NCBI GenBank assembly: GCA_038214755.1
Contig: JBBQRQ010000002.1
Span: 32,001-96,000 of the forward strand
From: Verrucomicrobiota bacterium
GTDB lineage: Bacteria; Verrucomicrobiota; Verrucomicrobiia; Limisphaerales; CANJXF01
Direction of reading: 5' to 3'
DNA length: 64,000 nucleotides
This document shows, piece by piece, positions 6,118-60,130 of this stretch. The notes below the pieces were generated by a model. The model saw only the letters and a list, made by a program, of their open reading frames with translations, searched no databases and was not told where the DNA came from. Within the stretch, counting starts at the first letter, position 1, and each line of letters starts with the position of its first letter. Both the position numbers and the translations under genes were made by a program.

Positions 6118-7863
6118 ATGAAAAACCTGCTGCGCGCTCTGAAATATTTTCGGGCGGATTCGCCGCGCCTGGCGGTGGTTTTTTTGCTGATGATCGCGAG
6201 CATCGGCTTGAACGTCCTCAAGCCGTGGCCGCTGGCGATCATTGTCGATTCAGTTCTGGGCGATAAACCGTTCCCCTTTTTCAGTGGCAAAAATCCAGGC
6301 GCCAAATACGAACTGCTGCCGCTCCTGGCGCTCGCGATTTTTCTTTTGCACCTTGGACAAGGCGGACTTTTCGCCACGCAAAATTTTCTTTCGATAAAAA
6401 TCGGTTTGCGCGGGCTGACGCGAGTGCGCAATGAAATTTTCGGCAAGTTGCAAAGGCTTTCGTTGCGCTTTCATCAAGGCGCATCAGCCGGCGATTTGAT
6501 TTATCGCGCCTCGTGGGACACCTACGCTTTCCAGACTCTCTTTCAACAAGGACTAGTGACGTTCGTCACCGCATTTCTCTCGCTCATGCTGATGGTTTTT
6601 GTCATGGCTCAATTAAACGTCCGCTTGGCGCTCATCGCGTTGGCGCTGGTTCCCTTTCTCCTGCTGACGATCAAATTATTTGGAAAAAAAATGAGCGGAC
6701 GCGCGGCGGCGGCGCAACAGGCGGACAGCCGGGTCACGTCACTGGTGCAACAGAACATTGCCGCGATGCCATTGATCCAGAGCTACACGCACGAGTGGTT
6801 TGAAAAAAAACATTTTGGCGACGAGGTGTCCGTCGCGGAGCGGCGTCGGATTTCGCAACATGGTTTCGAGCTTTTGTATTGGTTGATGCTGGCCATTCTT
6901 TTCGGCGCGGGAACAACGCTGGTCGGCTGGCTGGGCGCGAAAGAAGTTTTGGCGGGACGTTTGAGTGTCGGACAGCTTTTGATTTTCATCGCGTATCTGG
7001 CGCAACTTTATGAGCCGCTCAATCAACTCTCGCATGTGGGCGCCACGGTGTCGGGCGCGGCCGCTGGAACCCGGCGTGTCTTTGAAATTTTGGACGCGAC
7101 AGAAGAAGTCAAAGACTCTGGAACCCCGAATGAGAAGTCGAAGGTCAAAGGCCAAATCGAATTTCAAAATGTTTCTTTCGGCTACGAATCCAATCGGGAA
7201 ATTTTGCACGGGATCAGTTTCACGCTGGAGGCCGGGAAATGCGCCGCGCTCATCGGACCCAGCGGGTCGGGCAAGACGACCCTGTTGAATTTACTCCCGC
7301 GCTTTTTTGATCCAACCACCGGCTCGATAAAATTGGACGGAGTTGATTTGCGAGATTTCCTTTTGAAAAATTTGCGGCAACAGATCGCGCTGGTTTTGCA
7401 ACAGCCGATTATTCTTCCCGCGACCATTGCCGAAAATATTTCGTACGGAAAACCGGGCGCAACCTTTGCCGAAATCCAACGGGCGGCGGGCCAAGCCAAC
7501 GCCGACGCCTTCATCGAATGTTTGCCGAATAAATATGAGACGGTGGTCGGCGATGGCGCGGCGCGGTTGAGCGTGGGCGAGCAACAGCGCATCAATTTGG
7601 CGCGCGCCTTTTTGAAAAATGCGCCGATCCTTCTGCTCGACGAACCGACCAGCGCGTTGGATGCGGAAAGCGAGTCGCTGATTTTGAAAAGTTTGCAGGA
7701 CTTGATGCGCGACCGAACGACGTTGCTGGTGGCCCATCGGCTCAACACCATTCGGCAAATGGACAAAATTCTAGTCCTCGAAAACGGGCGACTCTCCGAA
7801 ATGGACGCATCCGAAACACAGTCGAAAGGCGGCGATTATTTTGCGCGTCTCATGACGCGTTAA
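6118..7863 (+). CDS. ABC transporter, fused permease/ATP-binding protein (MsbA-like)
   Basis: TM domain, then Walker A GPSGSGKT, signature LSVGEQQR, Walker B LLLDE. Confidence 0.93.
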   Translation: MKNLLRALKYFRADSPRLAVVFLLMIASIGLNVLKPWPLAIIVDSVLGDKPFPFFSGKNPGAKYELLPLLALAIFLLHLGQGGLFATQNFLSIKIGLRGLTRVRNEIFGKLQRLSLRFHQGASAGDLIYRASWDTYAFQTLFQQGLVTFVTAFLSLMLMVFVMAQLNVRLALIALALVPFLLLTIKLFGKKMSGRAAAAQQADSRVTSLVQQNIAAMPLIQSYTHEWFEKKHFGDEVSVAERRRISQHGFELLYWLMLAILFGAGTTLVGWLGAKEVLAGRLSVGQLLIFIAYLAQLYEPLNQLSHVGATVSGAAAGTRRVFEILDATEEVKDSGTPNEKSKVKGQIEFQNVSFGYESNREILHGISFTLEAGKCAALIGPSGSGKTTLLNLLPRFFDPTTGSIKLDGVDLRDFLLKNLRQQIALVLQQPIILPATIAENISYGKPGATFAEIQRAAGQANADAFIECLPNKYETVVGDGAARLSVGEQQRINLARAFLKNAPILLLDEPTSALDAESESLILKSLQDLMRDRTTLLVAHRLNTIRQMDKILVLENGRLSEMDASETQSKGGDYFARLMTR

Positions 7864-7962: not shown

Positions 7963-9162
7963 ATGAAAACGCCCTTTGATTCCATCGAATCCGTTATCGC
8001 CGATTTGCGCAAAGGCAAACTCGTGATCGTCGTGGATGACGCTGACCGCGAGAACGAAGGCGATTTGATTATGGCCGCGGAAAAAGTAACGCCGCAGGCC
8101 ATTAATTTTATGGCGAAATTCGGTCGAGGTTTGATTTGCGTTCCGACCACTTCCGAGCGGTTGAAACAATTGGGCATCGAGCAAATGGTCGTGCAAAACC
8201 GCGATAGTTTTAAAACCGATTTTCAAGTCAGCGTGGATGCCGCAAAAAATATTTCCACCGGAATCAGCGCGGCCGATCGCGCGCACACGATCAAAGTCAT
8301 GGCGAATCCCACAGCGGTGGCGAATGACTTGTTGCAGCCGGGTCACATCTTTCCGTTGCGCGCAAAACCGGGCGGAGTTTTGCAACGCGCCGGTCATACG
8401 GAGGCGGCGGTTGATCTGGTGCAGCTCGCCGGGTTCCGTCAGATCGGCGTGATTTGCGAGGTCATGAATGACAGCGGCGAGATGGCGCGCCTGCCCGAAC
8501 TGCGAAAATTCGCGCGACGACATTACCTGAAAATTTGTTCCATTGAAGCGCTCATCAAGTATCGCCGCACCCGCGAAAAACTGGTTGAAAAAATTGAAGT
8601 CGTAAAAATGCCGACCGACTTCGGCGATTTTGATTTGCATTTATATCGCTCGCATCTCGACGGCCAGCATCATCTCGCGTTGGTGCGCGGGGAGGTCGCT
8701 GGGAAAAAAAATGTTTTGGTGCGCGTTCACAGCGAATGTTTGACCGGCGATGTTTTTGGTTCCCGCCGCTGCGATTGTGGCCCGCAACTGCATCAAGCGA
8801 TGCGGCAAATCGCCAAGGAAGGTCGCGGTGTGATTGTTTACATGCGGCAGGAAGGTCGCGGCATCGGTCTCGCGCCAAAAATCCAAGCCTATAAATTGCA
8901 GGAAAGCGGCTACGACACCGTCGAGGCAAATCTAAAACTCGGTTACAAAATGGACCTCCGCGAATATGGCCTGGGCGCACAAATTCTCGTTGACCTCGGT
9001 TTGAAAACCATTCGCTTGCTGACGAACAATCCCAAAAAAGTTGTCGGGTTGGACGGTTATGGTTTGGAAATTGTCGAACAAGTTCCGATTCGCGTGAAAT
9101 CAAATCCGCACAACGAAAGTTATTTGAAAACAAAACGGGAAAAGTTGGGGCATTTGTTGTGA
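7963..9162 (+). CDS. ribBA: bifunctional 3,4-dihydroxy-2-butanone-4-phosphate synthase / GTP cyclohydrolase II
   Basis: 'DDADRENEGD', 'RAGHTEA', 'VRVHSECLTGD', 'RCDCG', 'QEGRGIGL'. Confidence 0.97.
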   Translation: MKTPFDSIESVIADLRKGKLVIVVDDADRENEGDLIMAAEKVTPQAINFMAKFGRGLICVPTTSERLKQLGIEQMVVQNRDSFKTDFQVSVDAAKNISTGISAADRAHTIKVMANPTAVANDLLQPGHIFPLRAKPGGVLQRAGHTEAAVDLVQLAGFRQIGVICEVMNDSGEMARLPELRKFARRHYLKICSIEALIKYRRTREKLVEKIEVVKMPTDFGDFDLHLYRSHLDGQHHLALVRGEVAGKKNVLVRVHSECLTGDVFGSRRCDCGPQLHQAMRQIAKEGRGVIVYMRQEGRGIGLAPKIQAYKLQESGYDTVEANLKLGYKMDLREYGLGAQILVDLGLKTIRLLTNNPKKVVGLDGYGLEIVEQVPIRVKSNPHNESYLKTKREKLGHLL

Positions 9163-14112: not shown

Positions 14113-14197
14113 TGGTGCGCTTAGCAGGACTTGAACCTGCACGGGTTACCCCACTACCACCTCAAAGTAGCGTGTCTGCCAATTCCACCATAAGCGC
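14113..14197 (-). tRNA. tRNA-Leu(GAG)
   Basis: reverse complement GCGCTTATGGTGGAATTGGCAGACACGCTACTTTGAGGTGGTAG...GGTTCAAGTCCTGCTAAGCGCACCA; long variable arm, canonical TTC T-loop, encoded CCA. Confidence 0.97.
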
Positions 14198-47146: not shown

Positions 47147-48541
47147 TCAGTCTTCAGCGCGCTCGCCATGCGGCGCCATCTTCACGAGCTTCGGATCGAA
47201 TTGGCCGATCGTTTCCACCAAGTCGGATTGCGCAGCCATGACCGTATGAATGTCTTTGTAAACCATCGGCGCTTCGTCAAGGCCAGCGGAAATGAGCGTC
47301 ACTCCGCGTTCGCGCAGAAATTGATTCACTGCTTTCCAATTGAAAGTTTGCGACGCGCGAGTGCGGCTCATGACACGTCCCGCTCCATGCGAAGCAGAAT
47401 GCAAAGATTCAGCATTCCCTTTTCCACGAACAACAAATCCGGGGGTCGCCATTGAGCCAGGGATTATTCCCAACACACCCGTGCCCGCTGGCGTGGCACC
47501 TTTGCGATGCACCACGACCTCACGCTCTACGCCCTCGATAACGTGCTTTTCTTTCCAGGCAAAGTTGTGGTGGTTTTCCAGATCGAGCAAGACCTGCGCG
47601 CCGAGATTTTCCGCGATGTGTTTATGAATGCAGGCGTGATTCGCGGCGGCGTATTGTCCCATCAATTCCATCGCGTTCCAATACTCCTGCCCTTCCTGCG
47701 AATCGAGCGACAACCACGCGAGCCGCTTCAATTCGCTCGGCAAATCGGGAAACTGGCTGAACGCGATCTTGCTGTAGTAATCGCAGACCGACGCGCCTGT
47801 GCCGCGACTCCCGCTGTGTGACAGCAACGCCACATAAGTGCCCGGTTCCAATTCGTTGATTTTCGAGTGCGCCGTGAATAGACCAAACTCGACAAAATGA
47901 TTGCCGCTGCCGCTCGTGCCGAGTTGCGACCACGCGCGGTCTTTGTTTTGTTTCGTAATTGGACTGACCGACCAGTCCGCGTCGAGCACGCCGTGGTGGC
48001 GACGCTCCTTGAAATTCGCGCCGATGCCGAAGCGCGTCTCCGCTTCGATGGCGCGCGTGAGCCGGTCCTGCTTGCGTTCCAGATCGCGCAACGGCAGATC
48101 GAGCACCGTCATCTTCATGCGGCACGCGATGTCCACACCAACGGCGTAAGGAATCACCGCGTTCTCGGTGGCCAGCACGCCGCCGATGGGCAGGCCGTAG
48201 CCCACATGCGCGTCCGGCATGAGCGCGCCCGCCACCGAGATCGGCAACAGACACGCCTTTTCCATCTGCATCACCGCCTCATGTTCCAAACCTTCGCCCC
48301 ATTGCCGATACTTCACCGGCTCGGCGCGCGGCGGCGGTGGCGCATGGAGCAACGCCTTCGCAAGCTCGCCGCGCAATGCGTCATCCACGAACGCCGCCGG
48401 ATTGGCGACAATGGCCGCGACATCTTCGTGCAACCGCGACTTGTCGCCGCCGCCGAGGATAAACTTGCAAACAAAATCCGTCGCGCGCCGGGTGGCCTCG
48501 CCGAGCGGAACTCCCGTTCGTAAAAAATCTTTCGCATTCAT
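47147..48541 (-). CDS. rtcB: RtcB family RNA ligase
   Basis: 'MPDAHVGYGLPIGG', 'VGVDIAC', 'GTSGSGNHFVE', 'HSGSRG', 'HHN', 'HRKGAT', 'PGSM', 'HGAGR', 'DEAP..YK'. Confidence 0.96.
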   Translation of the reverse strand: MNAKDFLRTGVPLGEATRRATDFVCKFILGGGDKSRLHEDVAAIVANPAAFVDDALRGELAKALLHAPPPPRAEPVKYRQWGEGLEHEAVMQMEKACLLPISVAGALMPDAHVGYGLPIGGVLATENAVIPYAVGVDIACRMKMTVLDLPLRDLERKQDRLTRAIEAETRFGIGANFKERRHHGVLDADWSVSPITKQNKDRAWSQLGTSGSGNHFVEFGLFTAHSKINELEPGTYVALLSHSGSRGTGASVCDYYSKIAFSQFPDLPSELKRLAWLSLDSQEGQEYWNAMELMGQYAAANHACIHKHIAENLGAQVLLDLENHHNFAWKEKHVIEGVEREVVVHRKGATPAGTGVLGIIPGSMATPGFVVRGKGNAESLHSASHGAGRVMSRTRASQTFNWKAVNQFLRERGVTLISAGLDEAPMVYKDIHTVMAAQSDLVETIGQFDPKLVKMAPHGERAED

Positions 48542-48575: not shown

Positions 48576-49868
48576 TCACTTTTGCGCCTTGCTCAACTCC
48601 GATTCGATCTCCTCGACCGTCGGCAGGCTGCCCTTCAGATTCTTCGGCAGGGATTCGACGAGCTTGGTCTGCCATTGCGCGACGCCGATGGGCTTCTTCA
48701 AATCGCGCAACGCATATTCCACCGTCAAGTTGTCGCGCTCCTTGCACAGCAACAGTCCGATAGACGGCTTGTCATCTGCGTGACGCAACTGATCGTCCAC
48801 GGCGGAGAGATAGAAATTCATTTTACCGGCGAACTCCGGCTCAAAGGCTTTCATCTTCAAATCGATCACCACGTAGCTGCGCAACCGCAGATGATAGAAC
48901 AACAGGTCGAGATAATAATCCTGCCCGCCAATTTCCAGGTGAAACTGCCGTCCCACGAACGCAAACCCGACGCCGAGCTGAAGCAGGAACTTCTGGATGT
49001 GATCCAGCAAACCCAATTCAAGGTCGCGCTCATGCGCGTCGGCGCGGAGCGTGAGGAAATCGAAGGTGTAAGGGTCTTTGAGCGTCTGCTCGGCCAGATC
49101 GGATTGCACCGGCGGCAACGTGCGCTGGAAGTTCGTAACCGCCTTGCCTTCGCGTTTGTGCAATTGCGCTTCGATGTGGTGCGTCAGCACCGCGCGTGAC
49201 CAGCCATGCTCGACGGCTTTGCGCGCATACCAAAGGCGGTCAGCGGCGGATTCGAGTTTTTGCAGCAACACAATGTTGTGACCCCACGGCAGCGAAGCCA
49301 TTGGTTCGGGCGGAGCGGCAAATTCTGTTGCAGGCTGTGACAGTTTTTGCGCCGGGAATTCTCTTACAGCTTGTGAGAGAATCTGCGGTTCGGATTCTCC
49401 AAGTCGCTGAGGAAGAATCGCCTCCTCCGGCAATTGTCGCACAAGCTGTGCGACAATTGCCGAACCCGACTGAGCAGCCGCCTTTTTCCCGCCGCCCGGT
49501 AATTGTCGCACAGGTTGTGCGACAATTGCGTTCGCCGGTGCATAACCCAGGAAGAACGCCCTCATGCGATAAAGATTCTTGCGAGAAAATCCTGCCATCT
49601 CGGGGAACTCCTCGGTCAAGTCATGCGAGAGGCGATCAAGCACGCGGTCGCCCCATTTGTGCGTTTTCTGTTGTTCAACGATGGCTCTGCCAATGTCCCA
49701 ATACAACGCGATCAGCTCGCGATTGACGGAAACCGCCGCGCGAAGTTGCGACGCGCGGACGCGCATCTTGAGGTCGGCGAGAATGGTGGCGTAATCGGCA
49801 GGCAATGCGCTGGACGCTTTGCCGCCGATGGCTTTTGCCAAGCTGATGGTTGATTTCTTTTTCGCCAT
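48576..49868 (-). CDS. DUF1016/YhcG PD-(D/E)XK nuclease family protein with repeat-expanded linker
   Basis: 'VNRELIALYWDIG', 'GFSRKNLYRMRAF', 'LPWGHN', 'KDPYTFDFL', 'DLLFYH..LR..VVIDLK', 'GKMNFY'. Confidence 0.93.
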   Translation of the reverse strand: MAKKKSTISLAKAIGGKASSALPADYATILADLKMRVRASQLRAAVSVNRELIALYWDIGRAIVEQQKTHKWGDRVLDRLSHDLTEEFPEMAGFSRKNLYRMRAFFLGYAPANAIVAQPVRQLPGGGKKAAAQSGSAIVAQLVRQLPEEAILPQRLGESEPQILSQAVREFPAQKLSQPATEFAAPPEPMASLPWGHNIVLLQKLESAADRLWYARKAVEHGWSRAVLTHHIEAQLHKREGKAVTNFQRTLPPVQSDLAEQTLKDPYTFDFLTLRADAHERDLELGLLDHIQKFLLQLGVGFAFVGRQFHLEIGGQDYYLDLLFYHLRLRSYVVIDLKMKAFEPEFAGKMNFYLSAVDDQLRHADDKPSIGLLLCKERDNLTVEYALRDLKKPIGVAQWQTKLVESLPKNLKGSLPTVEEIESELSKAQK

Positions 49869-50032: not shown

Positions 50033-51166
50033 TCACGCTATCGCTTGGCGCAATTCGCCCGGCGAAACAATTGAAAGTTTCAGCCTATCCTGAACCCGCT
50101 CATACGCCGGGCCGTTCAATGGGCTGACCACATAGTTTTTCCCTTTTGGATACTGTTCGCGAAACGCCGCCAGCCCGCGCGTTTCAAACGCATCCGCTTT
50201 CCATTTGCATTCGATGGCGTCAACGGCATCGCGGCCGCGCGGCACGACGAAGTCCACTTCGCGCTGCTGTTTGTCGCGCCAGAAATGAATCTTCGGCAGA
50301 TTGGCGGCGATAAGGGTGTCCAGCACGAGATGCTCCCACAACACGCCGCAATCCTCCGTTCGCAAATGATCCCAGCCGCGCGCGTGGCAGACCAACCCCG
50401 TGTCAAAACCGAACACCTTCGGCTGCGCCACGATCTCCCGCCGCCCGCCTGCTGAAAACGGACGCACCAAATGCGCCACATGCGTGATCTGATAAACCTC
50501 CAGCCAGTTCGTGACGGCAGGCCGGCTGATCTGGCTTTCGGCGGCCAGCTTCGTCACGTCCAGCATCCCGCCGCTTTGGCGCATCAACAATTCCAGCACG
50601 CGCAGAAAACCGGCGCGTTTCTCCAGCCGGAAAAGCTCCTGGACGTCGCGCGCGAAATAGGAATCCTGCCACTCGGCGTAGAATTCTGGATTGTGTTTCT
50701 CCGCGAGCAGCGCGGGCGGCAATCCCCCGCGCAACAAACGTTCCCGCAAATCCGTCACGCCGAACGCCGCCAATTCCTCGTGCAACACCGGCACCAGCTG
50801 CACCACCCGCTTGCGCCCCGTCAGGCTGTCGCGGAACTTTTGCGTGGCCGCGAGCGTGGACGAACCCGTCGCCAGGATTTTCAATTTGGGAAAATCATCC
50901 GCGCCAATCTTCAACAGCCGGCTTGGATCGGGAAGCTGATGCACCTCGTCGAACACCACCAGCCGCTTTTTCACGGAACGGAAAAAACTCTCCGGATCGC
51001 GCAGCCGTTCCGCCACGCTGGGCAGGTCGCAGTTGAGAAACTCCGCGTCGGGAAAGCTCTGCGCCAGCACCGTCTTGCCCGCGCGCCGCGGCCCGCTCAG
51101 CCAGACAATGGACGCCTGTTTCCACGCGGCGACGAGCCGTTCAGTCCAAAAAGGTCGGTCAATCAT
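50033..51166 (-). CDS. AAA_14 ATPase with DUF4143 domain
   Basis: 'GPRRAGKT', 'FDEVH', 'TGSS', 'SLTGR', 'GGLP', 'PKVFGFDTG', 'REVDF', 'IECK'. Confidence 0.9.
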   Translation of the reverse strand: MIDRPFWTERLVAAWKQASIVWLSGPRRAGKTVLAQSFPDAEFLNCDLPSVAERLRDPESFFRSVKKRLVVFDEVHQLPDPSRLLKIGADDFPKLKILATGSSTLAATQKFRDSLTGRKRVVQLVPVLHEELAAFGVTDLRERLLRGGLPPALLAEKHNPEFYAEWQDSYFARDVQELFRLEKRAGFLRVLELLMRQSGGMLDVTKLAAESQISRPAVTNWLEVYQITHVAHLVRPFSAGGRREIVAQPKVFGFDTGLVCHARGWDHLRTEDCGVLWEHLVLDTLIAANLPKIHFWRDKQQREVDFVVPRGRDAVDAIECKWKADAFETRGLAAFREQYPKGKNYVVSPLNGPAYERVQDRLKLSIVSPGELRQAIA

Positions 51167-51713: not shown

Positions 51714-52454
51714 TCACAACCAAATGTCCGTTCCTGCGGCGAGCCAGTTCGGAACCATCTTCTGATGCTGCCAGTGTTCGCTTTGCTGCACCTTCTCCAC
51801 AAACTCCGGACGGACCAGTTTGGCGCGGCCTGTCACATAGCCGTCGGCCTCACTGCGAACGTAAAGTCCTTCCATCAAATTGTCGGTCTTGCCCGTGATT
51901 GGATTTTCAAAAGCGCTGTCAAACGCCGATGGCACGATGAGCGATTCCAGTTCGTCTGCCTTGGCGCGACCGCGATGAACGATAGGCACAGTATGAAGGC
52001 CGGTTCCGTCCAACATTCGCTGACGAGCGGCGAGGTCGAGAAACTGCCCGGCGTCCTTGTCGTAAATGTCGAACTCGAAAAAGTAATGCGGTAGCTTGCA
52101 ATAGTGGACGGAGTGCTTCGCGTAGAGCCATTCGCCGTAGAGGATAAACTGATTACCGAGCATTCCTTCGAGGACTGGGCGCTTCACCGAAGTCCACTGC
52201 TTGAAGAGATCATATTGCGGATGCATGCCCTCGGTAATTTCGTGACCACGGCATTGCAGCACCATGCGTCCACGGGACGTGAAATGAATTCCAACGTTCG
52301 TGCCATCAATCTTCTCCGCCACAATCAACGAAGGGTCCGCGATCAACCTCTCAGATTCTTTTTGGCCAAGATGTTTGTCGCCAGCAGTTCCCTTCGACCC
52401 GAACAGATGCGGTGTGCGTGGGTATTTGATAAAATCATCGCGGGTCGCTCCCAT
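51714..52454 (-). CDS. ATP-dependent RNA ligase family protein
   Basis: 'KYPRTPHL', motif I 'EKIDGTN', 'LYGEW', 'FDIYD', 'EGLY', 'RAKLVRPEF'. Confidence 0.88.
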
Positions 52455-52520
52455 AGCAGTAATCGAGTTTGGTTGAATTAAGTTGGGAGAGCGAGCTTTG
52501 ACGCCCGCTCTCCCGTTGTT

Positions 52521-52591
52521 TCATTCGTTCAAGAACAGTTTCCACTCCGTGATGCCGTGGGCGTTGCGGAGGAGCGCCGTGACCGGCAGTT
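52521..52591 (-). pseudogene. orphan duplicate of the HNH gene 3' end
   Basis: encodes LPVTALLRNAHGITEWKLFLNE* versus LPVTALIRNAHGIAEWKLFLNA* at 53946-54016. Confidence 0.9.
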
Positions 52592-52619: not shown

Positions 52620-53867
52620 TCACAGACAAGACCACGGGAGCGCCGTCACCTTGTCGTGTATTTGCAGCGGCTGACGGCAGCGGCAAATGATGTAGGCGTG
52701 CTTCGCGTGTTTCGGATGTTCACCCAAGAACGTCAGGAGATGACGCGCGTCGGAGAGCGTCGGGTTCTCCGTCCATTTCACTTCAATCGGCGTCAGGCCG
52801 CCTTCGCGCTGGATGATGAAGTCCACTTCCGCGCCGTCATGGGTGCGGAGGTAATGCAACGTGCCCGTGCCAAGGTATTGCAGGCGTTTCCAAAGTTCGA
52901 CTCCCACCCATTGCTCGAAGAGCGGGCCGGGATTCGCCAGCACCACATCGGTGTTGGGCCGCAACCCGGCGGCGGCGTGGCGGATGCCGAGGTCGAAGAA
53001 CAGGAAGCGGTCGGTGGAGAGCAGATTTTTTCGCGGGCTGCCGGAATATGCTGGCAGACGGAAGCCGAGAAACATGTCTTCCAAAAGCTGGTAGTGGCTC
53101 TTGATGGTCGGCACGGACAGGCCTACGTCCTTGGAAATTTTGTGGTAGTTCACCATCTGCCCGGACTCGACGGCGGCGAAGCGCAGGAAGCGCACGAACG
53201 CGGGCCAGTCCTTCACCATCGCTTCGCGCCGCATTTCCTCCTCCAGATGAAGTTGCGTGTAGGCGTGCAACATCTCGGCGCGATGCGCTTCGTCAGCGGT
53301 GACGACGCCCGGGAGTTCGCCGAAGGCGAGTCGTGTGAGCAGGTCGGCGCGCGGAAATGGTTTCGTCGGGCGCTTCCCGTCCGGCCAGTCGAGCGGCAAC
53401 GGCGGCGGGGCGTCAAACTCAGCGGGCGATTCGGCAGGCGGGCGTTCAGTCAGCGTGAGCGGAAAAAGGCGGTGCAAAAAGCTGCGGCCCGGCAGAAGGT
53501 TCGCGCCGGTCTGCCGCAACTTGCGCGCGGAACTGCCGCAGAGGATGAACCGCCAGCGTTTCTTGTCTCCGTCGTAAAGATGCTGCACGGCGTCGAACAG
53601 CGCGGGCACGTTTTGCGCCTCGTCCACGAACACCCACGCGCCGCCTTCGCGCTGTCGCAGGCCACGGCAAAGTGCGATGAGGTCGTCCGGGTGGTTGAGA
53701 TATTGCGCCCGCACCTTCGGAATGGAGAGGTCAATGCGCGCGGCGTGCGGCGGCAGGAGATTCTGAATGAGGGTGGATTTGCCCGTCTGCCGCGCGCCGA
53801 ACACGATATGCACATACGGGGCGGCGAACTTCTTTCGCCAAAGGGATTCGGGCCAGCGGGTGAACAC
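52620..53867 (-). CDS. AAA_14 ATPase with DUF4143 domain
   Basis: 'GARQTGKST', 'VDEAQ', 'CGSSARKL', 'LLPGR', 'FFDLG', 'AEVDF', 'IEVK'. Confidence 0.9.
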   Translation of the reverse strand: MFTRWPESLWRKKFAAPYVHIVFGARQTGKSTLIQNLLPPHAARIDLSIPKVRAQYLNHPDDLIALCRGLRQREGGAWVFVDEAQNVPALFDAVQHLYDGDKKRWRFILCGSSARKLRQTGANLLPGRSFLHRLFPLTLTERPPAESPAEFDAPPPLPLDWPDGKRPTKPFPRADLLTRLAFGELPGVVTADEAHRAEMLHAYTQLHLEEEMRREAMVKDWPAFVRFLRFAAVESGQMVNYHKISKDVGLSVPTIKSHYQLLEDMFLGFRLPAYSGSPRKNLLSTDRFLFFDLGIRHAAAGLRPNTDVVLANPGPLFEQWVGVELWKRLQYLGTGTLHYLRTHDGAEVDFIIQREGGLTPIEVKWTENPTLSDARHLLTFLGEHPKHAKHAYIICRCRQPLQIHDKVTALPWSCL

Positions 53868-53881
53868 GGCTTGGTTTTAAT

Positions 53882-53917
53882 CGCCTGTTATTGAAAGTCA
53901 ACTTTCAATAACAGGCG
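53882..53917. promoter_or_regulatory. perfect 16-bp inverted repeat upstream of the second DUF4143 ATPase
   Basis: cgcctgttattgaaag-tcaa-ctttcaataacaggcg. Confidence 0.55.
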
Positions 53918-53945
53918 TTTAATGAAAACGCGATTCGCGCGCACC

Positions 53946-54203
53946 TCAGGCATTGAGGAACAGTTTCCACTCCGCGATGCCGTGCGCGTTTCGGATGAGC
54001 GCCGTCACCGGCAGTTCCTTCGGCGCGCGCGGAACGTTGAGCAATTTCAATACGGCTTCGTGCGGCAGGCGGTTGCCCTTTTTCGAGTTCACCGCTTTGT
54101 TCGCCCAGACGCAATTCTCCCACGCATCTTTTCCGCCGCGCGAACGTGGCAGGATATGATCGATACTGCCTTCCTCCGGCTTCAGAATTTTGCCGGTGTA
54201 TTG
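53946..54203 (-). pseudogene. HNH endonuclease, 5'-truncated
   Basis: 'QYTG.......SIDHILPRSRGGKDAWENCV......NSKKGNRLP'; upstream sequence is tRNA-like rather than coding. Confidence 0.85.
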
Positions 54204-54224
54204 GACCAGCCTCCCGGAATTGAA

Positions 54225-54302
54225 TGGTGCGGCAACCGGGAGTTGCACCCGGACGAACGGAAGACTTGCAGGTCGCCGCCTGGGCTACTCGGCTAATAGG
54301 AC
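54225..54302 (-). tRNA. chimeric/degenerate tRNA-like gene (Cys-GCA-like 5' half fused to a different 3' half)
   Basis: GTCCTATTAGCCGAGTAGCCCAGGCGGCGACCTGCAA|GTCTT...CCGGG-TGCAACT-CCCGG-TTGCCGCACCA; acceptor strands do not pair. Confidence 0.55.
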
Positions 54303-54310
54303 ATCAATCG

Positions 54311-54560
54311 TTACTCTCGGAAGTAATGATCGCGCCGACTTCCGTCATAGCAGCCAGACTGCAATCAACAATTTTTGAAAGCTGCGTCCTGAGCCGCACG
54401 AACAAAGATCGTTGCGTCCGAGCTTTTCATGAAGCTCCTTAGTTCCATAAACGATGCGGGAACCTTTTTTCAAGCGAGTTTCCGATGGATACCCTTTGCG
54501 ACGTTTGCTGGTGATCTCGAAAAAACGGGCTGTCTTGATGAACCGATTGATTTCCCTTAC
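54311..54560 (-). CDS. small SEC-C motif protein (recoded or pseudogene; absent from the ORF track)
   Basis: '[49 protein letters not shown]', then +1 frame '[20 protein letters not shown]'; 5' boundary uncertain. Confidence 0.7.
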
Positions 54561-54634
54561 GGCCTCCGGCTTAGGGGTTGTGGTTGTGAATAACTAATGC
54601 TTGAAATTTTTTCCTTCTAACGCGACAACAGAAC

Positions 54635-54757
54635 TGCGCGACGAACAGCTTTGATCCAAATACCGGCTTTGAGATCTTTGTGCCGGGGCGTGGATTGCTC
54701 CTCGGAGCAGTATTCCGCTTGCGGAAGCGCCTATCTCCTTTGAGCGTTCGCCGCGCA
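54635..54757 (-). ncRNA. candidate structured ncRNA
   Basis: 12-bp closing stem TGCGCGGCGAAC/GTTCGTCGCGCA enclosing three hairpins; lies just 3' of a tRNA-like gene. Confidence 0.55.
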
Positions 54758-54771
54758 TTTACTTTTTGAAT

Positions 54772-54848
54772 TGGTCAGGAAGCCGGCATTTGCACGCGGA
54801 CCGTCTCCTTCACAGGGAGAGATGCTGCTAATTACACCACGATCCTGA
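54772..54848 (-). tRNA. non-canonical tRNA-His(GTG)-like gene
   Basis: TCAGGATCGTGGTGTAATTAGCAGCATC-TCTCC-CTGTGAA-GGAGA-CGGTCCGCG-TGCAAAT-GCCGGCTTCCTGACCA; imperfect T and acceptor stems. Confidence 0.7.
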
Positions 54849-54945
54849 TTTGAGCGCGGAACGCAGAACGCGGAACGCGGAAAGAAAAACTCGCGCGCGA
54901 TTGATCTGATTTCCACGTTCCGCATTCCGAGTTCCGCGTTTGAAA

Positions 54946-55019
54946 TGCTCCCACGTGGACTTGCACCACGAACCTTCTCCTTCGCAGGGAGACATGCAGT
55001 TCTATTACACCTTGAGAGC
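54946..55019 (-). tRNA. non-canonical tRNA-Arg(GCG)-like gene
   Basis: acceptor GCTCTCA/TGGGAGC, anticodon arm TCTCC-CTGCGAA-GGAGA, T arm CGTGG-TGCAAGT-CCACG; A at position 8; no encoded CCA. Confidence 0.8.
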
Positions 55020-55115
55020 GGAAAGAAATTTACGATTTACGAATGACGATTTACGCGGGCAAATCCAAATCGTCAGCCGACTCGTAAATCGTAAATCCAA
55101 AATCGTAAATCGAAA

Positions 55116-55145
55116 TGGTATCCGTGGCCGGACTTGCACCGGCTA
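55116..55145 (-). tRNA. 3' half of a tRNA-like gene
   Basis: GCCGG-TGCAAGT-CCGGC-CACGGAT-A-CCA; 5' half missing. Confidence 0.65.
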
Positions 55146-55260
55146 GGTGGTGGAGATGAAGCGGTCGCGGAAACGTTTTAAAACGTCGCAAATAAAAGGA
55201 GCGGCATGACGGTGAATGAGTTGTTGATATTTTTCATAGCGGGAAAGTGGCCGGAACCCT

Positions 55261-55386
55261 CCACCGTTTCGAGTCTTTTCGTCGGCCTGCGCTACGCTCC
55301 GGCCTCCTCCAAGACTCGAAACGGTGGGAAGAATAAATCACTGAAGGTTTGATCGCACACACTGAAGGTTTGATCGCACCGCGACA
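55261..55386. mobile_element. isolated IS end (IS21-like): hairpin plus tandem terminal repeats ending in ACA
   Basis: ccaccgtttcgagtctt...aagactcgaaacggtgg; cactgaaggtttgatcgcac twice (55339-55358, 55360-55379), then cgcgaca. Confidence 0.55.
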
Positions 55387-55421
55387 GCTACAAATCTGAG
55401 TCGTGGCGACGGCGCGCTGCT

Positions 55422-55494
55422 CGTAGCCGCCGACGTGAGGAGGCGGATTCCGATCGGAAAACCACGAAACCGCCTCCTCACGTCAGCGGCTACA
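55422..55494. repeat. GTAG-type REP doublet
   Basis: gtagccgccgacgtgaggaggcgg ... ccgcctcctcacgtcagcggctac. Confidence 0.8.
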
Positions 55495-55540
55495 ACTTAT
55501 GAAATTTTGATGGAGCGCGAACCAGATTTTTCCCGGAGAT

Positions 55541-55939
55541 TTATTCCTTTTTCTTTTTGAAAAATCTTGGGCCAGCCTCGCCTTGTCGTTGTTGAACTTT
55601 GAGTTGGCCAAGAATGGAGACCCAACCGATAAAAATTTTATGCCATTGATTTTCCATGCTGCGGATGACGCCATCGGCCATTTCGCTGAGGTAGCGAATG
55701 GAGGGCGCGCTCGAGATCAGGGCGAGGACGTCTTCCTTGGTCGGGGAGGGGCATTCCACGGAAGCGAGGATCAACTCCATTTCCTGAACGATGACGCTTT
55801 TGACTTCGAGGAATTGGATCTCGTCTTCGCTGCTGAATTTTTTTGAGCGGGCGAGGTTGACGAAATAATTAAATTGCTTGAGGCATTCCAAATAATTTTC
55901 CAACTGCAGGATGAGTTGTTCGTGGTCTTGGTGGCGCAT
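55541..55939 (-). CDS. hypothetical helical protein
   Basis: 132-aa ORF co-oriented 5 nt after the upstream gene. Confidence 0.7.
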   Translation of the reverse strand: MRHQDHEQLILQLENYLECLKQFNYFVNLARSKKFSSEDEIQFLEVKSVIVQEMELILASVECPSPTKEDVLALISSAPSIRYLSEMADGVIRSMENQWHKIFIGWVSILGQLKVQQRQGEAGPRFFKKKKE

Positions 55940-55944
55940 AAAAT

Positions 55945-56247
55945 TTAATCGTTGTAGGGCTGAAGTCCTTTTGGTTTGAGAAAAATAATGGCTCCGCCGC
56001 GAAGCTCGCGCGCGGTGATTTTAAAGCCGCCATAACGCACGATAATTTCGGACAGAGGCAAAGCGGCCTTGCGCGCATCCTGGAATACGCCCAAAACGGT
56101 GCCGCTGATCTCGCCCATGTATTTTTGGGAGAAGGAATGCGGCAAGGTCGAGGCGAGCAAACGGCCCAGCGCATCGACGGTGAAACTGCCCGAAGGCAAC
56201 CGCGCCAGTTTCGGAATCGGTTTGGAAAAAATATTTAAGAAGCCCAT
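55945..56247 (-). CDS. small roadblock/profilin-like hypothetical protein
   Basis: ATG at 56247; 'GSFTVD..GRLLASTLP...LSEIIVRY..FKITAREL..GAIIFL' pattern. Confidence 0.55.
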   Translation of the reverse strand: MGFLNIFSKPIPKLARLPSGSFTVDALGRLLASTLPHSFSQKYMGEISGTVLGVFQDARKAALPLSEIIVRYGGFKITARELRGGAIIFLKPKGLQPYND

Positions 56248-57311
56248 TTGATTGAGATGTTTTTTAAGGTTTCGTAAAGTTGGTCCGCGCTCAACGTGCG
56301 CTTGAATCCAACGCAAAGTTCCGTGTCGCCGCGCGAGGCGATTCCTATGTGCCGCTGCAATCCCAGCCCTTCAACCTGCTTTAAATCGCCCGCCTGCAAT
56401 TTTTCTCCGAGGTCGCGCAAGCGTTTTTGGGTTTGTCGGGTCCACGCCGCGACCGGGCTGGAATTTTCCAGTCCCCAGGAATCCGGCGCGGCTTTTTGAT
56501 CGGCGGGAACGGTCATGACAAATTCCACGCCATCGATGCGCGAGAGAGCGGCCAGCGGGGAGCGCGTCAAAAATTTCGTGTCGCACGCGGCGGTTTGCGC
56601 GGAGGATTCCGAACCTTTATTCTCGTCAAAGGCCTGGGCGAAATCCAGAAGCAATCCTTGATAGGGAGTTAAGATCACCCGCACATGGTCCGGTTCACCA
56701 GGCAAAATCTCGAAGCTGCCATTTTTCCACGACAAAATTTCTTTGAAAGCTGCTTCGCCACTCATGGTCAAGGTCGCCGCATCCATCACTTCGCCATCCG
56801 TCACCCAAATATTTCCCTGCCGGCCTTCCTTCGTGATTTTCAAAACAGAGGAACTGTGCGAGAGACATTCCAATTGGATCAGATCAACCAGGCTCTTGCT
56901 TTGGATTCCGCGAAACCCGTTATCGACCTGCTGGCCGAGCAAGGATTCGATGCACTCGCGGAACAGATTTATTTCCTCTGACGTGCTGGGCTTTTCCCAA
57001 AATAAATCGATGCCCATGGCGTAAGCGCGAGTCCGATATTGTTCATCGACCACCGCCGTCATCACGACGATTCGCAGTTGAGGAAATTTCCGGCGCACGA
57101 TGGAGAGCACTTGCAGTCCATCCATCTTGGGCATCCGCAAATCAGAAATGAGCATCGTAAACGGCTCGGATTCCAGTATGGCAATGGCGCGCGCGCCGGA
57201 AGTGGAGGTGTGGATTTCCGGCTGGCTGGGCAATTGCCGGAGGACCTCCTGAAACAAATCGAGCAAGTCCTGCTCATCATCCAGCAGTAAAATTTTATGG
57301 GGTTGGGACAT
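56235..57311 (-). CDS. response regulator: REC + DUF4388/PATAN + C-terminal roadblock-like domain
   Basis: 'ILLLDDE', 'SDLRMPKMDG', 'KP'; 'GFRGIQSKSLVDLIQL...G.I....GEVMDA.....GEAAF.EILSW..GSF'. Confidence 0.85.
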   Translation of the reverse strand: MSQPHKILLLDDEQDLLDLFQEVLRQLPSQPEIHTSTSGARAIAILESEPFTMLISDLRMPKMDGLQVLSIVRRKFPQLRIVVMTAVVDEQYRTRAYAMGIDLFWEKPSTSEEINLFRECIESLLGQQVDNGFRGIQSKSLVDLIQLECLSHSSSVLKITKEGRQGNIWVTDGEVMDAATLTMSGEAAFKEILSWKNGSFEILPGEPDHVRVILTPYQGLLLDFAQAFDENKGSESSAQTAACDTKFLTRSPLAALSRIDGVEFVMTVPADQKAAPDSWGLENSSPVAAWTRQTQKRLRDLGEKLQAGDLKQVEGLGLQRHIGIASRGDTELCVGFKRTLSADQLYETLKNISIKWAS

Positions 57312-57429
57312 TGGTCTTGAAAATCAGGACATTTTAATTTGGCGCAAAAAATGCGAACCGCACAGAACGAATGAAAATGCAATCAGTGAAAATAACCGCG
57401 ACAGCCACACTTTATTAAAGGTTAAAAAC

Positions 57430-59028
57430 ATGTTTGGATCACTCAAAAAATTATTCCGTAAGGACATGGACGCTGGCCTAGCTACTTCTATTCCAGAGAC
57501 ATTTCATTCCACCGCAAGCCCCTCGTGGGCGTCGCGTCCGGATGCGCCCGCCACCATGACGTTTTCTCCCGAAATTCTCGCCCCTACTCCTTCTCTTACG
57601 GGAGTGGCAAGTTCGGTCGAGATTGTGGCATTGCCGGTGAGAAGCATCCTGGCTTCGTTGCCCAGTACGCTAACTTCTCTTGTCCAATCTCAGGGCAACG
57701 GCTTTGTCAACCTGTCCGCAAAGCGGATTTTGCAAGAGCTACCTAAGGGTTCGGTAAAACTTCCTTTTGCCGAAATTCGGCACGCCGCTCCCAATGGAAC
57801 TTTTTTCGACAACGCGCGTTTCGATCAGATGCTGATCGAACTGCCGCTGGCCGAAATTTTGTCGCGGCTCCATCCTTCTCTCTTGTCGCGCCGCGCCAAT
57901 CAAAAACAAACTTTTGTCTCGCTGGAAGTCACCAATATTTTCGGTCCGCGCGGTCAGGGTATTTCGATTAGCCAGCCTGAGAGATCGTTCAAGCCCGCGC
58001 CAGCAGTCGGTGAGACGACGAATGCCCACGATGCGACGCCCACCGCCATGCCGACGTTGGCCATGCCAATTGCAGTTCCAATCGTGTCTCACGTTCCGCA
58101 ACTCCGAGTGCTGCCCCCCGAACCTGCGCTCGCCGGAAATGCGGATCGGCTGGAAATCCCGATCGCCGCTCTTTTCGAAAAATGGCCGCAAGCCATTCGG
58201 AGGGAGATAGCGGAATCTGATTTGATTCAGGCAACGATTTCTTTTCCGATGGACAAGATTGAGCCGTTACTGAAAGCCGGAAAAATTATTTTTACCTGGC
58301 AACAAATCTGCCAATGGATGCAACCGCGCGTCAAAAATGTTTCCGCCGAAGAGGATCTGCCCCTTGAGTTGCCGCTCGAAATCGTCGCGCCCCTTTTTAT
58401 GGCGCAACACCGCCCGGCCAAAGCACAGAAGAAAATTTCCATGGGCGAAATCCCGGACCTGTTCACCAACCTCAAAACGGAGCGAGTCGCCGTTTTGAAA
58501 CACGAAATCACCGCGCCGGTCCTGCACCTGGAATCCATCGCGGCGCCTCCGAAAATAAAACCATTCGTGATGCCCGTGGCAGTAGAATCTGTTCCTGCGC
58601 CGGTTGAAATAGAACCGGCGGTCGCGCCGATCCAGCCAGAGAATCCGGTCGGAGAAATTTTTGGGCGCGCGGAAAAACAGGATTGGTCACCCGGCGAGAT
58701 CGTGAAAAATTTGGCGGCAATGCCCGACTTGGATGGAGCATTCATCGCCATGCAGGACGGGCTGCTGGTCGCAGCAGAATTACCGGGGAAATTCAAAGCG
58801 GAAACGGTCGCCGCTTTTCTCCCGCAAATTTTCGGACGCATGAATCAATACGCCAAAGAGCTTCAACTAGGCGGTCTCTCCAGCCTGGCTTTCGAAGCGG
58901 AAAACATTTCCTGGCAAATCGTGAAGGCAGAAGGCGTCTATCTCGTGGTGCTGGGCAAACCGGGCCGGGATTTACCGAAGGCAACACTCAACACAATCGC
59001 GAACGCAGTCAGCAAACAGATTCAATAA
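57430..59028 (+). CDS. Pro-rich multidomain protein with C-terminal roadblock/LC7 domain
   Basis: C-terminal 'LAAMPDLDGAFIAMQDGLLVAAELP...AAF......ELQLG'; two internal homologous segments. Confidence 0.75.
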   Translation: MFGSLKKLFRKDMDAGLATSIPETFHSTASPSWASRPDAPATMTFSPEILAPTPSLTGVASSVEIVALPVRSILASLPSTLTSLVQSQGNGFVNLSAKRILQELPKGSVKLPFAEIRHAAPNGTFFDNARFDQMLIELPLAEILSRLHPSLLSRRANQKQTFVSLEVTNIFGPRGQGISISQPERSFKPAPAVGETTNAHDATPTAMPTLAMPIAVPIVSHVPQLRVLPPEPALAGNADRLEIPIAALFEKWPQAIRREIAESDLIQATISFPMDKIEPLLKAGKIIFTWQQICQWMQPRVKNVSAEEDLPLELPLEIVAPLFMAQHRPAKAQKKISMGEIPDLFTNLKTERVAVLKHEITAPVLHLESIAAPPKIKPFVMPVAVESVPAPVEIEPAVAPIQPENPVGEIFGRAEKQDWSPGEIVKNLAAMPDLDGAFIAMQDGLLVAAELPGKFKAETVAAFLPQIFGRMNQYAKELQLGGLSSLAFEAENISWQIVKAEGVYLVVLGKPGRDLPKATLNTIANAVSKQIQ

Positions 59029-59040
59029 AGGAAACAACGT

Positions 59041-59652
59041 ATGGCAATTATCAATCAGGCAACCAAAGAGCTTCAGGTAAAAATCGTTTACTACGGCCCC
59101 GGTCGCGGTGGAAAAACGACCAACCTCGAACAACTGCACAGCAATGTGCAAAACGTGCAGGAAAAAGGAAAACTCGTCTCGCTGGCGACCAGCTCCGACC
59201 GCACGTTGTTTTTCGATTTCCTCCCCATCGAAGCGATGTCGATCAAAGGTTTCAAAACCAAATTTCAACTCTACACCGTGCCGGGACAGGTCATTTATAA
59301 CACGACGCGCCAACTCGTTTTGCGCGGCGTGGATGGCATCGTCTTTGTGGCCGATTCGCAATACGACAAGATGGCCGAGAACGTGGAAAGTTTCGCCAAC
59401 CTCGAAGAGAACATGAAGGCATTGAAGTTGAACCTGGGCGACATCCCGTACGTTCTGCAATACAACAAGCGCGATTTGCCCAACGTGGCGCCAGTGGAAT
59501 ACATGGATTTTCTTTTGAACAATCGCGACGTTCAAGTCCCGTCGTTCCCCGCCTGTGCGACCCGATGCGAGGGCGTCTTCGACACGCTCAACATGATCAC
59601 CCGGCTGTTGCTCCATAAATTTATCAACGAAGGAACGCGCAAAGTGGCTTGA
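59041..59652 (+). CDS. mglA: MglA-family small Ras-like GTPase
   Basis: 'KIVYYGPGRGGKTTN', 'RTLFFDF', 'YTVPGQ', 'GVDGIVFVADS', 'NKRD'. Confidence 0.95.
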   Translation: MAIINQATKELQVKIVYYGPGRGGKTTNLEQLHSNVQNVQEKGKLVSLATSSDRTLFFDFLPIEAMSIKGFKTKFQLYTVPGQVIYNTTRQLVLRGVDGIVFVADSQYDKMAENVESFANLEENMKALKLNLGDIPYVLQYNKRDLPNVAPVEYMDFLLNNRDVQVPSFPACATRCEGVFDTLNMITRLLLHKFINEGTRKVA

Positions 59653-59653
59653 T

Positions 59654-60130
59654 ATGTTCAGCCTCCCCCCATTGCTCGAGGAGGACATCCAGTGCATGGA
59701 ATCCGCTCTGGACGAACTGCTCCAAAAAAGCGAAGCGACCACCGCGCTGATCATCGACAAAGGCGGTCCTTTGATCACCCAGCGCGGAACGCTCAACGCT
59801 TTCGACACCACGACCATGGCCGCGCTGACGGCAGGCTCGTTTGCCGCGAGCGAAGCCATTGCAGGGTTGGTGGGCGAATCTTATTTCAGCAGTGTTTACC
59901 AACAAGGCGAGCGCCAGAGTTTATGGATCGGAAATGTTGGCTCTAATTTATTGGTGATCGTGATTTTCAAAGCCTCCCTCGGCGTCGGCGTCGTGAAATA
60001 TTTCGCGGTGCAGACGACTCAACGCATCGCCGCCCAGATCAAAAAAGCCCGGTCGCGCACCGATGAAAATTTGGATTTGGTCTCGCTCAATCTCCTGGAT
60101 TCTTCGGAGCTTTTTAAAAAGAAAGCTTGA
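59654..60130 (+). CDS. mglB: MglB-family roadblock/LC7 protein
   Basis: 'LIIDKGG', 'AALTAGSFAASEAIAGLVGE..F...YQQGE', 'LGVVK'. Confidence 0.88.
   Translation: MFSLPPLLEEDIQCMESALDELLQKSEATTALIIDKGGPLITQRGTLNAFDTTTMAALTAGSFAASEAIAGLVGESYFSSVYQQGERQSLWIGNVGSNLLVIVIFKASLGVGVVKYFAVQTTQRIAAQIKKARSRTDENLDLVSLNLLDSSELFKKKA

Follow-up and report, generated by a model that had tools for sequence, protein, structure and literature searches.

Why should four neighbouring tRNA-like elements all read TGCAA where a T-loop ordinarily reads TTCRA? The question is raised by a stretch of 64,000 nucleotides from a Verrucomicrobiota genome (contig JBBQRQ010000002.1, positions 32,001 to 96,000), here called the window; its source assembly (G000) is 5.1 Mb in size and 97% complete. 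The elements lie between 54225 and 55147, all on the minus strand, and the substitution they share puts G in place of U55, the site of TruB. An earlier note on the window argued that the same change in four genes is unlikely to be random decay and marks a distinct class of tRNA. Our comparisons bear this out: the locus is almost certainly a relic of a conserved class of tRNA genes in which A18 and G55 stand where G18 and U55 are usual.

The four T-arms are GCCGG-TGCAAGT-CCGGC at 55116-55147, CGTGG-TGCAAGT-CCACG in an Arg-like element (within 54946-55019), CCGCG-TGCAAAT-GCCGG in a His-like element (within 54772-54847) and CCGGG-TGCAACT-CCCGG in the element at 54225-54300. As the earlier note had it, the tRNA-Leu at 14113 has the normal TTC. 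An encoded CCA terminates three of the four elements. The pattern GTGCAANTNC-N11-CCA has three matches in the window, all among these four elements, against a mean of 0.01 in shuffled sequence, with three or more matches in 0 of 100 shuffles. The bare heptamer GGTGCAA is not enriched in the window (14 observed, 10.1 expected), and the signal therefore resides in the T-arm together with its CCA context. In all three D-loops that survive, moreover, A18 replaces G18 (A18-G19 rather than the usual G18-G19), so that both members of the canonical pair, G18 and U55, are exchanged.

With default settings ARAGORN calls one of the four elements (the His-like, as His-GUG), and Rfam at its gathering setting calls none. 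A local search with the Rfam tRNA model (RF00005) scores the Arg-like element at 48.4 bits (E 7.9e-9) and the His-like at 19.2 bits. The RF00005 cloverleaf with paired stems fits the Arg-like element and intact relatives from other genomes; it does not fit the His-like element or the two others, which prove to be a Glu fragment and a chimera. Single-sequence folding of the window elements and of a tRNA-Glu(CUC) gene of the same genome gives z-scores of -0.4 to -1.5, which is weak evidence, and no sigma-70-like promoter was found in 53800-56000.

A class of tRNA genes with A18 and G55

Homologous loci were sought in 40 relatives, and intact arrays were located. An intact island comprises some 15-30 tRNA genes in a row on one strand, in addition to the normal dispersed set. 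In G229, a genome in one contig, G55 is present in 25 of 25 parsed array genes and a dispersed tRNA set is found besides; the array lies between a divergent LysR gene and genes for HNH, RtcB, SPFH and RlaP proteins. The G013 array contains 14 genes called by ARAGORN, again with a dispersed set, and in G052 G55 is found in 17 of 17. Among loci fetched by homology, with the motif unused, 61 of 63 parsed genes have G55. The check proposed in the earlier note, that ordinary TTC loops or an absence of covariation in orthologues would speak against a class, thus came out in favour of one: orthologues retain G55, and their stems covary.

The association between positions 18 and 55 was assessed in 1,229 distinct genes with unambiguous assignments; genes of G000, Anabaena and Staphylococcus were excluded, as were 13 with C55 and 156 with G55 or U55 whose D-loops are ambiguous. 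G55 occurs with AG in the D-loop in 830 genes and U55 with GG in 379; the mixed combinations number 17 (G55 with GG) and 3 (U55 with AG). AGG is present in 40 of 45 G55 genes having GG in the D-loop. A second parser, blind to the T-loop, returned 1,823 matches at the cut-off used and none in shuffled loci; position 55 in its 1,439 distinct genes is G in 1,067, U in 356, C in 16 and A in none. When corrected mutual information is calculated for 426 genes with 7-nt D-loops, the best partner of 55 is 18 (0.51; the next scores 0.07), while 56 is partnered with 19 and 54 with 58. In G000 itself 43 parsed tRNA genes have U55, all with GG in the D-loop, and three have G55, all with AG.

From the covariation of 18 with 55 we infer that A18 and G55 form an equivalent contact. 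T-loop motifs with G at the second loop position (UGNRA) are known from T-box riboswitches, RNase P and rRNA. The array consensus, T-G-C-R-A, fits this form, here in the tRNA elbow itself, and the match lends plausibility to a contact between A18 and G55. The normal elbow is built from G18, inserted into the T-loop and paired with pseudouridine 55, together with the pairs G19-C56 and T54-A58; position 55 has been called universally conserved (PMC4810234). A real contact between A18 and G55 is very probable: A18 would intercalate into the T-loop and pair with G55 as G18 does with pseudouridine 55.

Apart from the elbow the genes resemble canonical bacterial tRNAs in their cloverleaf, 5-bp T-stem with G53-C61, 7-nt T-loop and purine 57, and in the covariation of the 19-56, 54-58, 8-14 and 15-48 pairs; they differ in G55 and A18 and in that U54 and C56 change along with their partners. 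Stems, CCA and synthetase identity elements are retained. The pooled G55 set spans all 20 amino acids, and identity elements follow the anticodon: G3:U70 is present in 24 of 24 Ala genes, U73 in 63 of 63 Cys, G73 in 27 of 27 Asp and A73 in 67 of 67 Lys, and the variable arm is long in 13 of 13 Ser and 20 of 20 Tyr genes. Exceptions are the A73 of a bulged His variant and the many Arg-GCG genes that have no A20. The T-stem pairs that EF-Tu reads are similar to those in U55 genes, and anticodon loops are ordinary. C1:G72 occurs in 227 of 1,067 G55 genes as against 34 of 356 U55 genes. A short variable arm, like that of the Anabaena array discussed below, is present in 66 of 102 Leu genes in the G55 set. 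Array tRNAs are likely to be charged and used in translation.

Tandem G55 T-arms were found in 119 stretches of viral contigs and in at least 141 of genome contigs. Among the matches listed in genome contigs 51 of 80 come from Verrucomicrobiota, and the remainder include Planctomycetota, Myxococcota, Gammaproteobacteria, Cyanobacteria, Gemmatimonadota, Chloroflexota and Bacteroidota. The distribution is patchy: three or more G55 T-arm matches occur in 8 of 300 other genomes of a phylum sample, and the array His pattern in 0 of 8 congeners. Horizontal spread is inferred from this patchiness. When compared with plasmid and phage reference collections, the G013 array gave 12 short, single-tRNA plasmid matches and no phage matches. 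Neighbouring genes were counted for 67 distinct array regions, with flanks of up to 5 kb or to the contig end: HNH genes adjoin 36 regions, RtcB 24, TROVE 23, SPFH 8, LysR 4 and RlaP 3, and 41 regions have RtcB, TROVE, RlaP or a ligase.

These islands recall the L-arrays, of which the type case is that of Anabaena (the trn operon on plasmid delta of Anabaena/Nostoc PCC 7120; Santamaria-Gomez et al. 2021, PMC8421152; for the TrcR regulon, PMC10272220). Both are long, same-strand, supernumerary operons with a patchy distribution over phyla; they have homologous HNH genes, linked or co-regulated RtcB and slipin/SPFH genes, and short-arm tRNA-Leu. Stress induces the Anabaena array, charging was seen for 23 of its 26 tRNAs, and HNH and rtcB come under the same regulation (PMC8421152). 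Intact relatives of the window locus share the long same-strand run, the supernumerary set, the patchiness and the linked HNH with RtcB nearby; the window copy differs in consisting of four remnants only. In contrast to the Anabaena array, in which 24 of 25 T-arms read TTC and only Glu(CUC) has A18/G55, whole arrays here are A18/G55, and Ro60 and a divergent LysR gene are found in place of control by TrcR. The accessible parts of both L-array papers make no mention of the elbow. Judged by its sequence, the window locus is what remains of a wrecked accessory operon of tRNA genes, of the L-array type.

Selections from D- and T-loop libraries in the Steinberg laboratory may have yielded artificial suppressors with combinations of purines at 18 and 55. 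Searching the mostly open-access full-text literature, judged by titles and abstract openings, returned no description of natural A18/G55 tRNAs, and the accessible parts of PMC11231383, PMC4919913 and bioRxiv 10.1101/2024.12.08.627333 contain none.

The same exchange in a stand-alone tRNA-Glu(CUC)

The exchange is not confined to arrays. The only Glu(CUC) genes found in G000 are two copies on contig C5 (L034), at 6458-6532 and 7370-7444, both A18/G55; a 3′ fragment follows at about 8806-8835, as at an integration site. Of 151 genomes of the order, 128 have a match to the gene. A pattern that left 18 free and allowed T or G at 55 was applied to 251 genomes of the class and matched in 94 of them: ten of the 95 matches (in nine genomes) are A18/G55, 85 are G18/U55 and none is mixed. 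The Glu(CUC) genes of G410 and G442 differ from that of G000 at exactly two of 75 bases, positions 18 and 55.

A quick search with SH-aLRT support only gave an RpoB tree on which to place the elbow state; it covers 20 genomes with A18/G55, 24 with G18/U55 and five outgroups (3 of 52 chosen genomes gave no usable row). On the best tree the state changes nine times, with at least four changes forced by strong branches. Repeated double change is here indistinguishable from transfer of the gene; on either account a conserved chromosomal tRNA has kept A18/G55. The repeated exchange points to a second working way of building the corner of a tRNA.

Glu(CUC) stands alone in the 21 loci examined. The same ParE-like gene (PF05016, E 1.8e-4, just under the cut-off; L361-L380) lies downstream in 13 of them, with both elbow states. 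An opposite-strand gene is common to ten Glu(CUC) loci, and its start resembles, by eye, the array HNH protein. Between the two C5 copies is a pair of small genes that have the look, again by eye, of an antitoxin and a PIN-domain toxin.

The array remnants and their surroundings

Where the earlier note counted four genes there are four T-arms, of which two belong to full-length genes. Taken as working members of the class the four do not stand up, being relics cut by an insertion sequence and two deletions. The remnant comprises:

55146..55388, minus strand: left end of an ISNCY/IS481-like insertion sequence with a decayed transposase-gene start, replacing the 5′ part of the array (88-89% identity, congeners G002, G003 and G007)
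55116..55147, minus strand: last 32 nt of tRNA-Glu(UUC), with G55 T-arm, 3′ strand of the acceptor and CCA, lacking the D and anticodon arms (aligned to four Glu-UUC array genes; insertion-sequence junction)
54943..55019, minus strand: tRNA-Arg(GCG) with A18, G55, A8, A20 and all stems intact (Rfam 48.4 bits, cloverleaf fold, orthologues)
54772..54847, minus strand: tRNA-His(GUG) of the array type, with A18, G55, bulged acceptor stem, C1:G72 and A73 (ARAGORN, alignment)
54315..54586, minus strand: decayed small array gene with stops in the translated frame (75% over 273 nt to G013; 74% over 204 nt to G037)
54225..54300, minus strand: deletion chimera of the D-arm and 5′ anticodon part of tRNA-Cys(GCA) with the 3′ part of tRNA-Gly(UCC) (alignment)

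The insertion sequence and two deletions destroyed the array in G000, leaving at most tRNA-Arg(GCG) as a gene that could still work; the deletions and point changes are read from the assembly alone. In G007 the insertion-sequence end runs on into a transposase (E 3.6e-43 against ISNCY and E 2.2e-20 against IS481, each short of the curated cut-off). A short reading frame upstream of the first T-arm, considered as a leader peptide, is the decayed start of the transposase gene and has no Pfam match. The genes at 55,600-57,400 are followed in 8 of 8 congeners by genes located on another G000 contig, and gene order broken at the array edge in this way marks a rearrangement point.

The window tRNA-Arg(GCG) ends in TTT where its orthologues encode CCA; it alone of the four might still function, given enzymatic addition of CCA. 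Its A8, GCG anticodon and intact stems are as the earlier note described them, and A8 is inherited (21 of 34 Arg-GCG genes have it) and not a sign of decay. The anticodon stem TCTCC/GGAGA that it shares with the His-like gene is also there, and turns out to be no feature of the class: just 1 of the 34 other Arg-GCG genes has it, and TCTCC is found in 4 of 9 other His variants. The window tRNA-His(GUG) is a probable pseudogene, with a non-cloverleaf fold and two private mismatches in a T-stem that is fully paired in 9 of 9 other variants. A one-base bulge in the 5′ strand of the acceptor is conserved in the array tRNA-His(GUG), along with C1:G72, A73 and usually U at -1, as opposed to the usual G-1:C73; the variants compared are the window gene and those of L012, L023, L165, L173, L184, L186, L230, L236 and L284.

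The Gly(UCC) portion of the chimera, with a damaged anticodon arm, the G55 T-arm, the 3′ strand of the acceptor and CCA, is 94% identical over 54 nt to the 3′ end of Gly-UCC in G007, and Cys stands ahead of Gly-UCC in the arrays of G013 and G032. A reading of the first and fourth elements as mini-tRNAs or Y RNAs was rejected on alignments that identify them as the Glu(UUC) fragment and the Cys/Gly chimera. Just downstream of the chimera 1,269 bp are missing relative to G007, including eight tRNA genes and the start of the HNH gene; a 100-codon reading frame at 53946-54248 that begins inside the chimera is an artefact of this deletion. The counterpart of the decayed small gene in G037 is an open reading frame with a match to PF02810 (SEC-C motif). 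Elsewhere in G000, at its 97% completeness, no further array pieces and no TROVE gene were found.

Downstream the island continues on the same strand:

53949..54204, minus strand: 3′ part of an HNH endonuclease gene (PF13395, E 6e-10; 93% to G007 and G003)
52620..53867, minus strand: AAA_14 and DUF4143 ATPase gene, between two HNH 3′ ends (domain search)
51714..52454, minus strand: RNA ligase gene on the array strand (PF09414, E 1.3e-33)
50033..51166, minus strand: AAA_14 and DUF4143 ATPase gene, common to congener G007 (domain search)
48576..49868, minus strand: YhcG (DUF1016) nuclease-domain gene, absent from the G007 locus (domain search)
47147..48541, minus strand: intact RtcB RNA ligase gene at the island end (PF01139, E 6.6e-87)

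The intact HNH protein of G007 is 44% identical over 79 amino acids to the HNH protein beside the Anabaena trn operon, and the order HNH, second ATPase, RtcB is common to G007. A second copy of the HNH 3′ end lies at 52473-52591. The ATPase gene at 52620..53867 and the YhcG gene are probably passengers, and a PF09414 ligase is rare beside other arrays (1 of 67 regions).

Several further features were observed. Palindromic or short-period repeats fill spacers at 53875-53928, 54847-54946, 55031-55093 and 55420-55496, with many related copies in the genome and its relatives; matches to microRNA families in Rfam are palindromic repeats, with scores far under gathering. On the other side of the array the window encodes, at 56235-60130, a DUF4388 response regulator, two Roadblock/LC7 proteins and a small GTPase, presumably an MglA/MglB-like cluster, of which the 55,600-57,400 portion is kept in 8 of 8 congeners. 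Three arrays carry a tRNA with a UAU anticodon and a long variable arm (L021:7167-7258, L024:1053-1144 and L029:580-671), and Leu- or Ser-like units with extended D-arms and long or odd anticodon regions, uncalled by ARAGORN, occur at L021:6801-7140 and L028:4550-4900. The interior of the G013 array holds a gene for the release-factor-associated type of RtcB (TIGR03073; L021:3666-4883) and a DIP1984-like gene (L021:2764-3210). Contig C26 of G000 has, at 6279-6368, a long-arm Ser-like tRNA to which ARAGORN gives the anticodon ACT; a normal Ser(GCT) is on C121.

What the exchange may be for

We tentatively propose that array tRNAs are back-up translational tRNAs, and that independence from elbow modification of the TruB type is the selective reason for A18/G55. 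The tRNA would hold its L-shape although 55 offers TruB no target, G18 is absent and U54 often is too. If it behaves like the Anabaena trn operon, the island would be silent during growth and induced on damage to translation or to tRNA; it would then deliver large amounts of tRNA able to fold and function straight from transcription, with RtcB and Ro60 mending or removing broken RNA. Loss of U54 affects 312 of 1,067 G55 genes as against 18 of 356 U55 genes, and the Arg anticodons GCG and ACG stand at 34:10 in G55 genes as against 2:11 in U55 genes. A GCG anticodon needs no inosine. Independence from modification is favoured, then, by the disappearance of the TruB site and of G18, by the loss of U54 and by the preference for GCG over ACG.

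A number of observations weigh against this proposal. G000 and all 5 array-bearing genomes tested have TruB; its loss is accordingly rejected as the cause of G55, and A18/G55 is no compensation for a lost enzyme. Targets of other modifications are not depleted: G46 is found in 268 of 503 G55 genes and 110 of 181 U55 genes, G37 in 154 of 1,067 and 42 of 356, and CAU anticodons remain. The role of an L-array needs no G55, to judge by the Anabaena array, which functions although 24 of its 25 T-arms read TTC. Many phage loci mix G55 and U55 genes. Stand-alone Glu(CUC) switches both ways with no evident link to stress, as near-neutrality would have it. Finally, most loci of the class were picked by the G55 pattern and kindred genes are not independent, so that p-values overstate the case.

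The main rival, second to independence from modification and in our estimate unlikely, also takes the arrays to be translational tRNAs, and these two leading explanations both figured among the suggestions of the earlier note: A18/G55 and the swaps at 54-58 and 19-56 would let them escape toxins or nucleases that read the T-psi-C loop or the elbow. A toxin that cuts tRNA between the thymidine and the pseudouridine of the T-loop has been described (PMC9086364). The frequency of the class in phages, the RNA-repair genes beside most array regions and the fact that the solvent-exposed 19-56 pair is swapped too are in keeping with such an escape. So is the ParE-like gene after Glu(CUC), but it accompanies both elbow states. 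Against it, most tRNA nucleases cut the anticodon loop or the acceptor stem (for VapC, see PMC8421152), and array anticodon loops are ordinary; array tRNAs are, moreover, the ones cleaved in Anabaena (PMC8421152).

It is improbable that the exchange has no special function, A18/G55 being an equivalent pair reached by compensatory change and spread in one mobile lineage through founder effect and gene conversion. Near-neutrality accords with the repeated switching of housekeeping Glu(CUC), whose alleles are two bases apart, with a related Anabaena array that functions with a normal elbow, and with the patchiness and decay of the arrays themselves. All 43 other parsed tRNA genes of G000 nonetheless keep G18/U55, and whole arrays of unrelated isotypes, such as those of G229 and G052, are converted, which needs many double changes in the same direction. 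The loss of U54 and the Arg-GCG preference that accompany G55 likewise speak against a neutral swap.

It is more doubtful still that these are non-translational RNAs, whether nuclease decoys or adaptors or substrates of Ro60 and RtcB, after the manner of YrlA Y RNAs or of the cell-wall tRNA-Gly of staphylococci. The scan of genome contigs for tandem G55 T-arms did turn up G55 tRNA-Gly genes in Staphylococcus petrasii (L219), which we take to be the staphylococcal non-proteinogenic tRNA-Gly. That RNA is a glycine isotype only, with a D-loop lacking GG and a T-stem that binds EF-Tu weakly. It resembles array tRNAs in G55 (a TGC T-loop) and in the loss of GG from the D-loop; it differs in being a single isotype, in having neither AG nor GG in the D-loop and in its A-U-rich T-stem, whereas the arrays serve all amino acids with A18-G19 and T-stem pairs that are not weakened, and do not belong with it. 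The rsr-yrlBA-rtcBA operon likewise places Ro60 and RtcB genes next to tRNA-like RNAs and responds to tRNA damage (PMC7790460, PMC4201824), and TROVE genes lie beside about a third of the array regions. But YrlA, a Ro60-bound mimic, carries pseudouridine 55 (PMC4201824), unlike the arrays with their G55 and full tRNAs complete with anticodons and identity elements. Neither RtcR nor RtcA was seen among the common array neighbours examined, and Rfam gives no match to a Y-RNA family up to E 10. A sponge role has been proposed for the L-array (PMC8421152), and array tRNA-His has an odd acceptor; against these stands the agreement of identity elements with the anticodon for all 20 amino acids. Decoys or Ro-associated adaptors, which the earlier note had suggested, are unlikely as the main role for the same reason, and because G000 has no TROVE match.

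A bolder scheme, to which we give about as little credence, is that a nuclease of the island, or of phage or bacterial rivals, reads the G18/pseudouridine-55 elbow and that the A18/G55 set is an immune, orthogonal replacement that takes over translation. On this view an everyday gene, Glu(CUC), would have made the same escape through its repeated two-base switch. The scheme is weakened by the mixed arrays of phages and by Anabaena, where a homologous HNH accompanies an array with normal elbows. The least credible cause acts at the level of DNA, with G55 removing a GGTTCRA motif read by the island's HNH homing nuclease or by tRNA-targeting integrases and A18 compensating: HNH is the commonest neighbour and SegB of phage T4 prefers tRNA genes for cutting (PMC8421152), but Anabaena keeps TTC beside a homologous HNH, and the 3′ end of G55 Glu(CUC) occurs three times on contig C5, as at an integration site.

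The window locus, as a decayed example only, has limited value of its own; what matters is the class to which it leads, with A18/G55 covarying across roughly a thousand distinct genes that represent every isotype, and occurring as well in a conserved chromosomal tRNA present as a single copy. Genes of this kind are under-called by tRNA finders. Cell-free translation may also find a use for them as modification-independent scaffolds. The two-base alleles of Glu(CUC) form a clean natural pair with which to probe the role of pseudouridine 55 and any elbow-based protection from nucleases, and the role of the near-universal contact between G18 and pseudouridine 55 becomes directly testable. Since a natural, covarying alternative to it exists, the ribosome, RNase P and the synthetases probably accept a second elbow.

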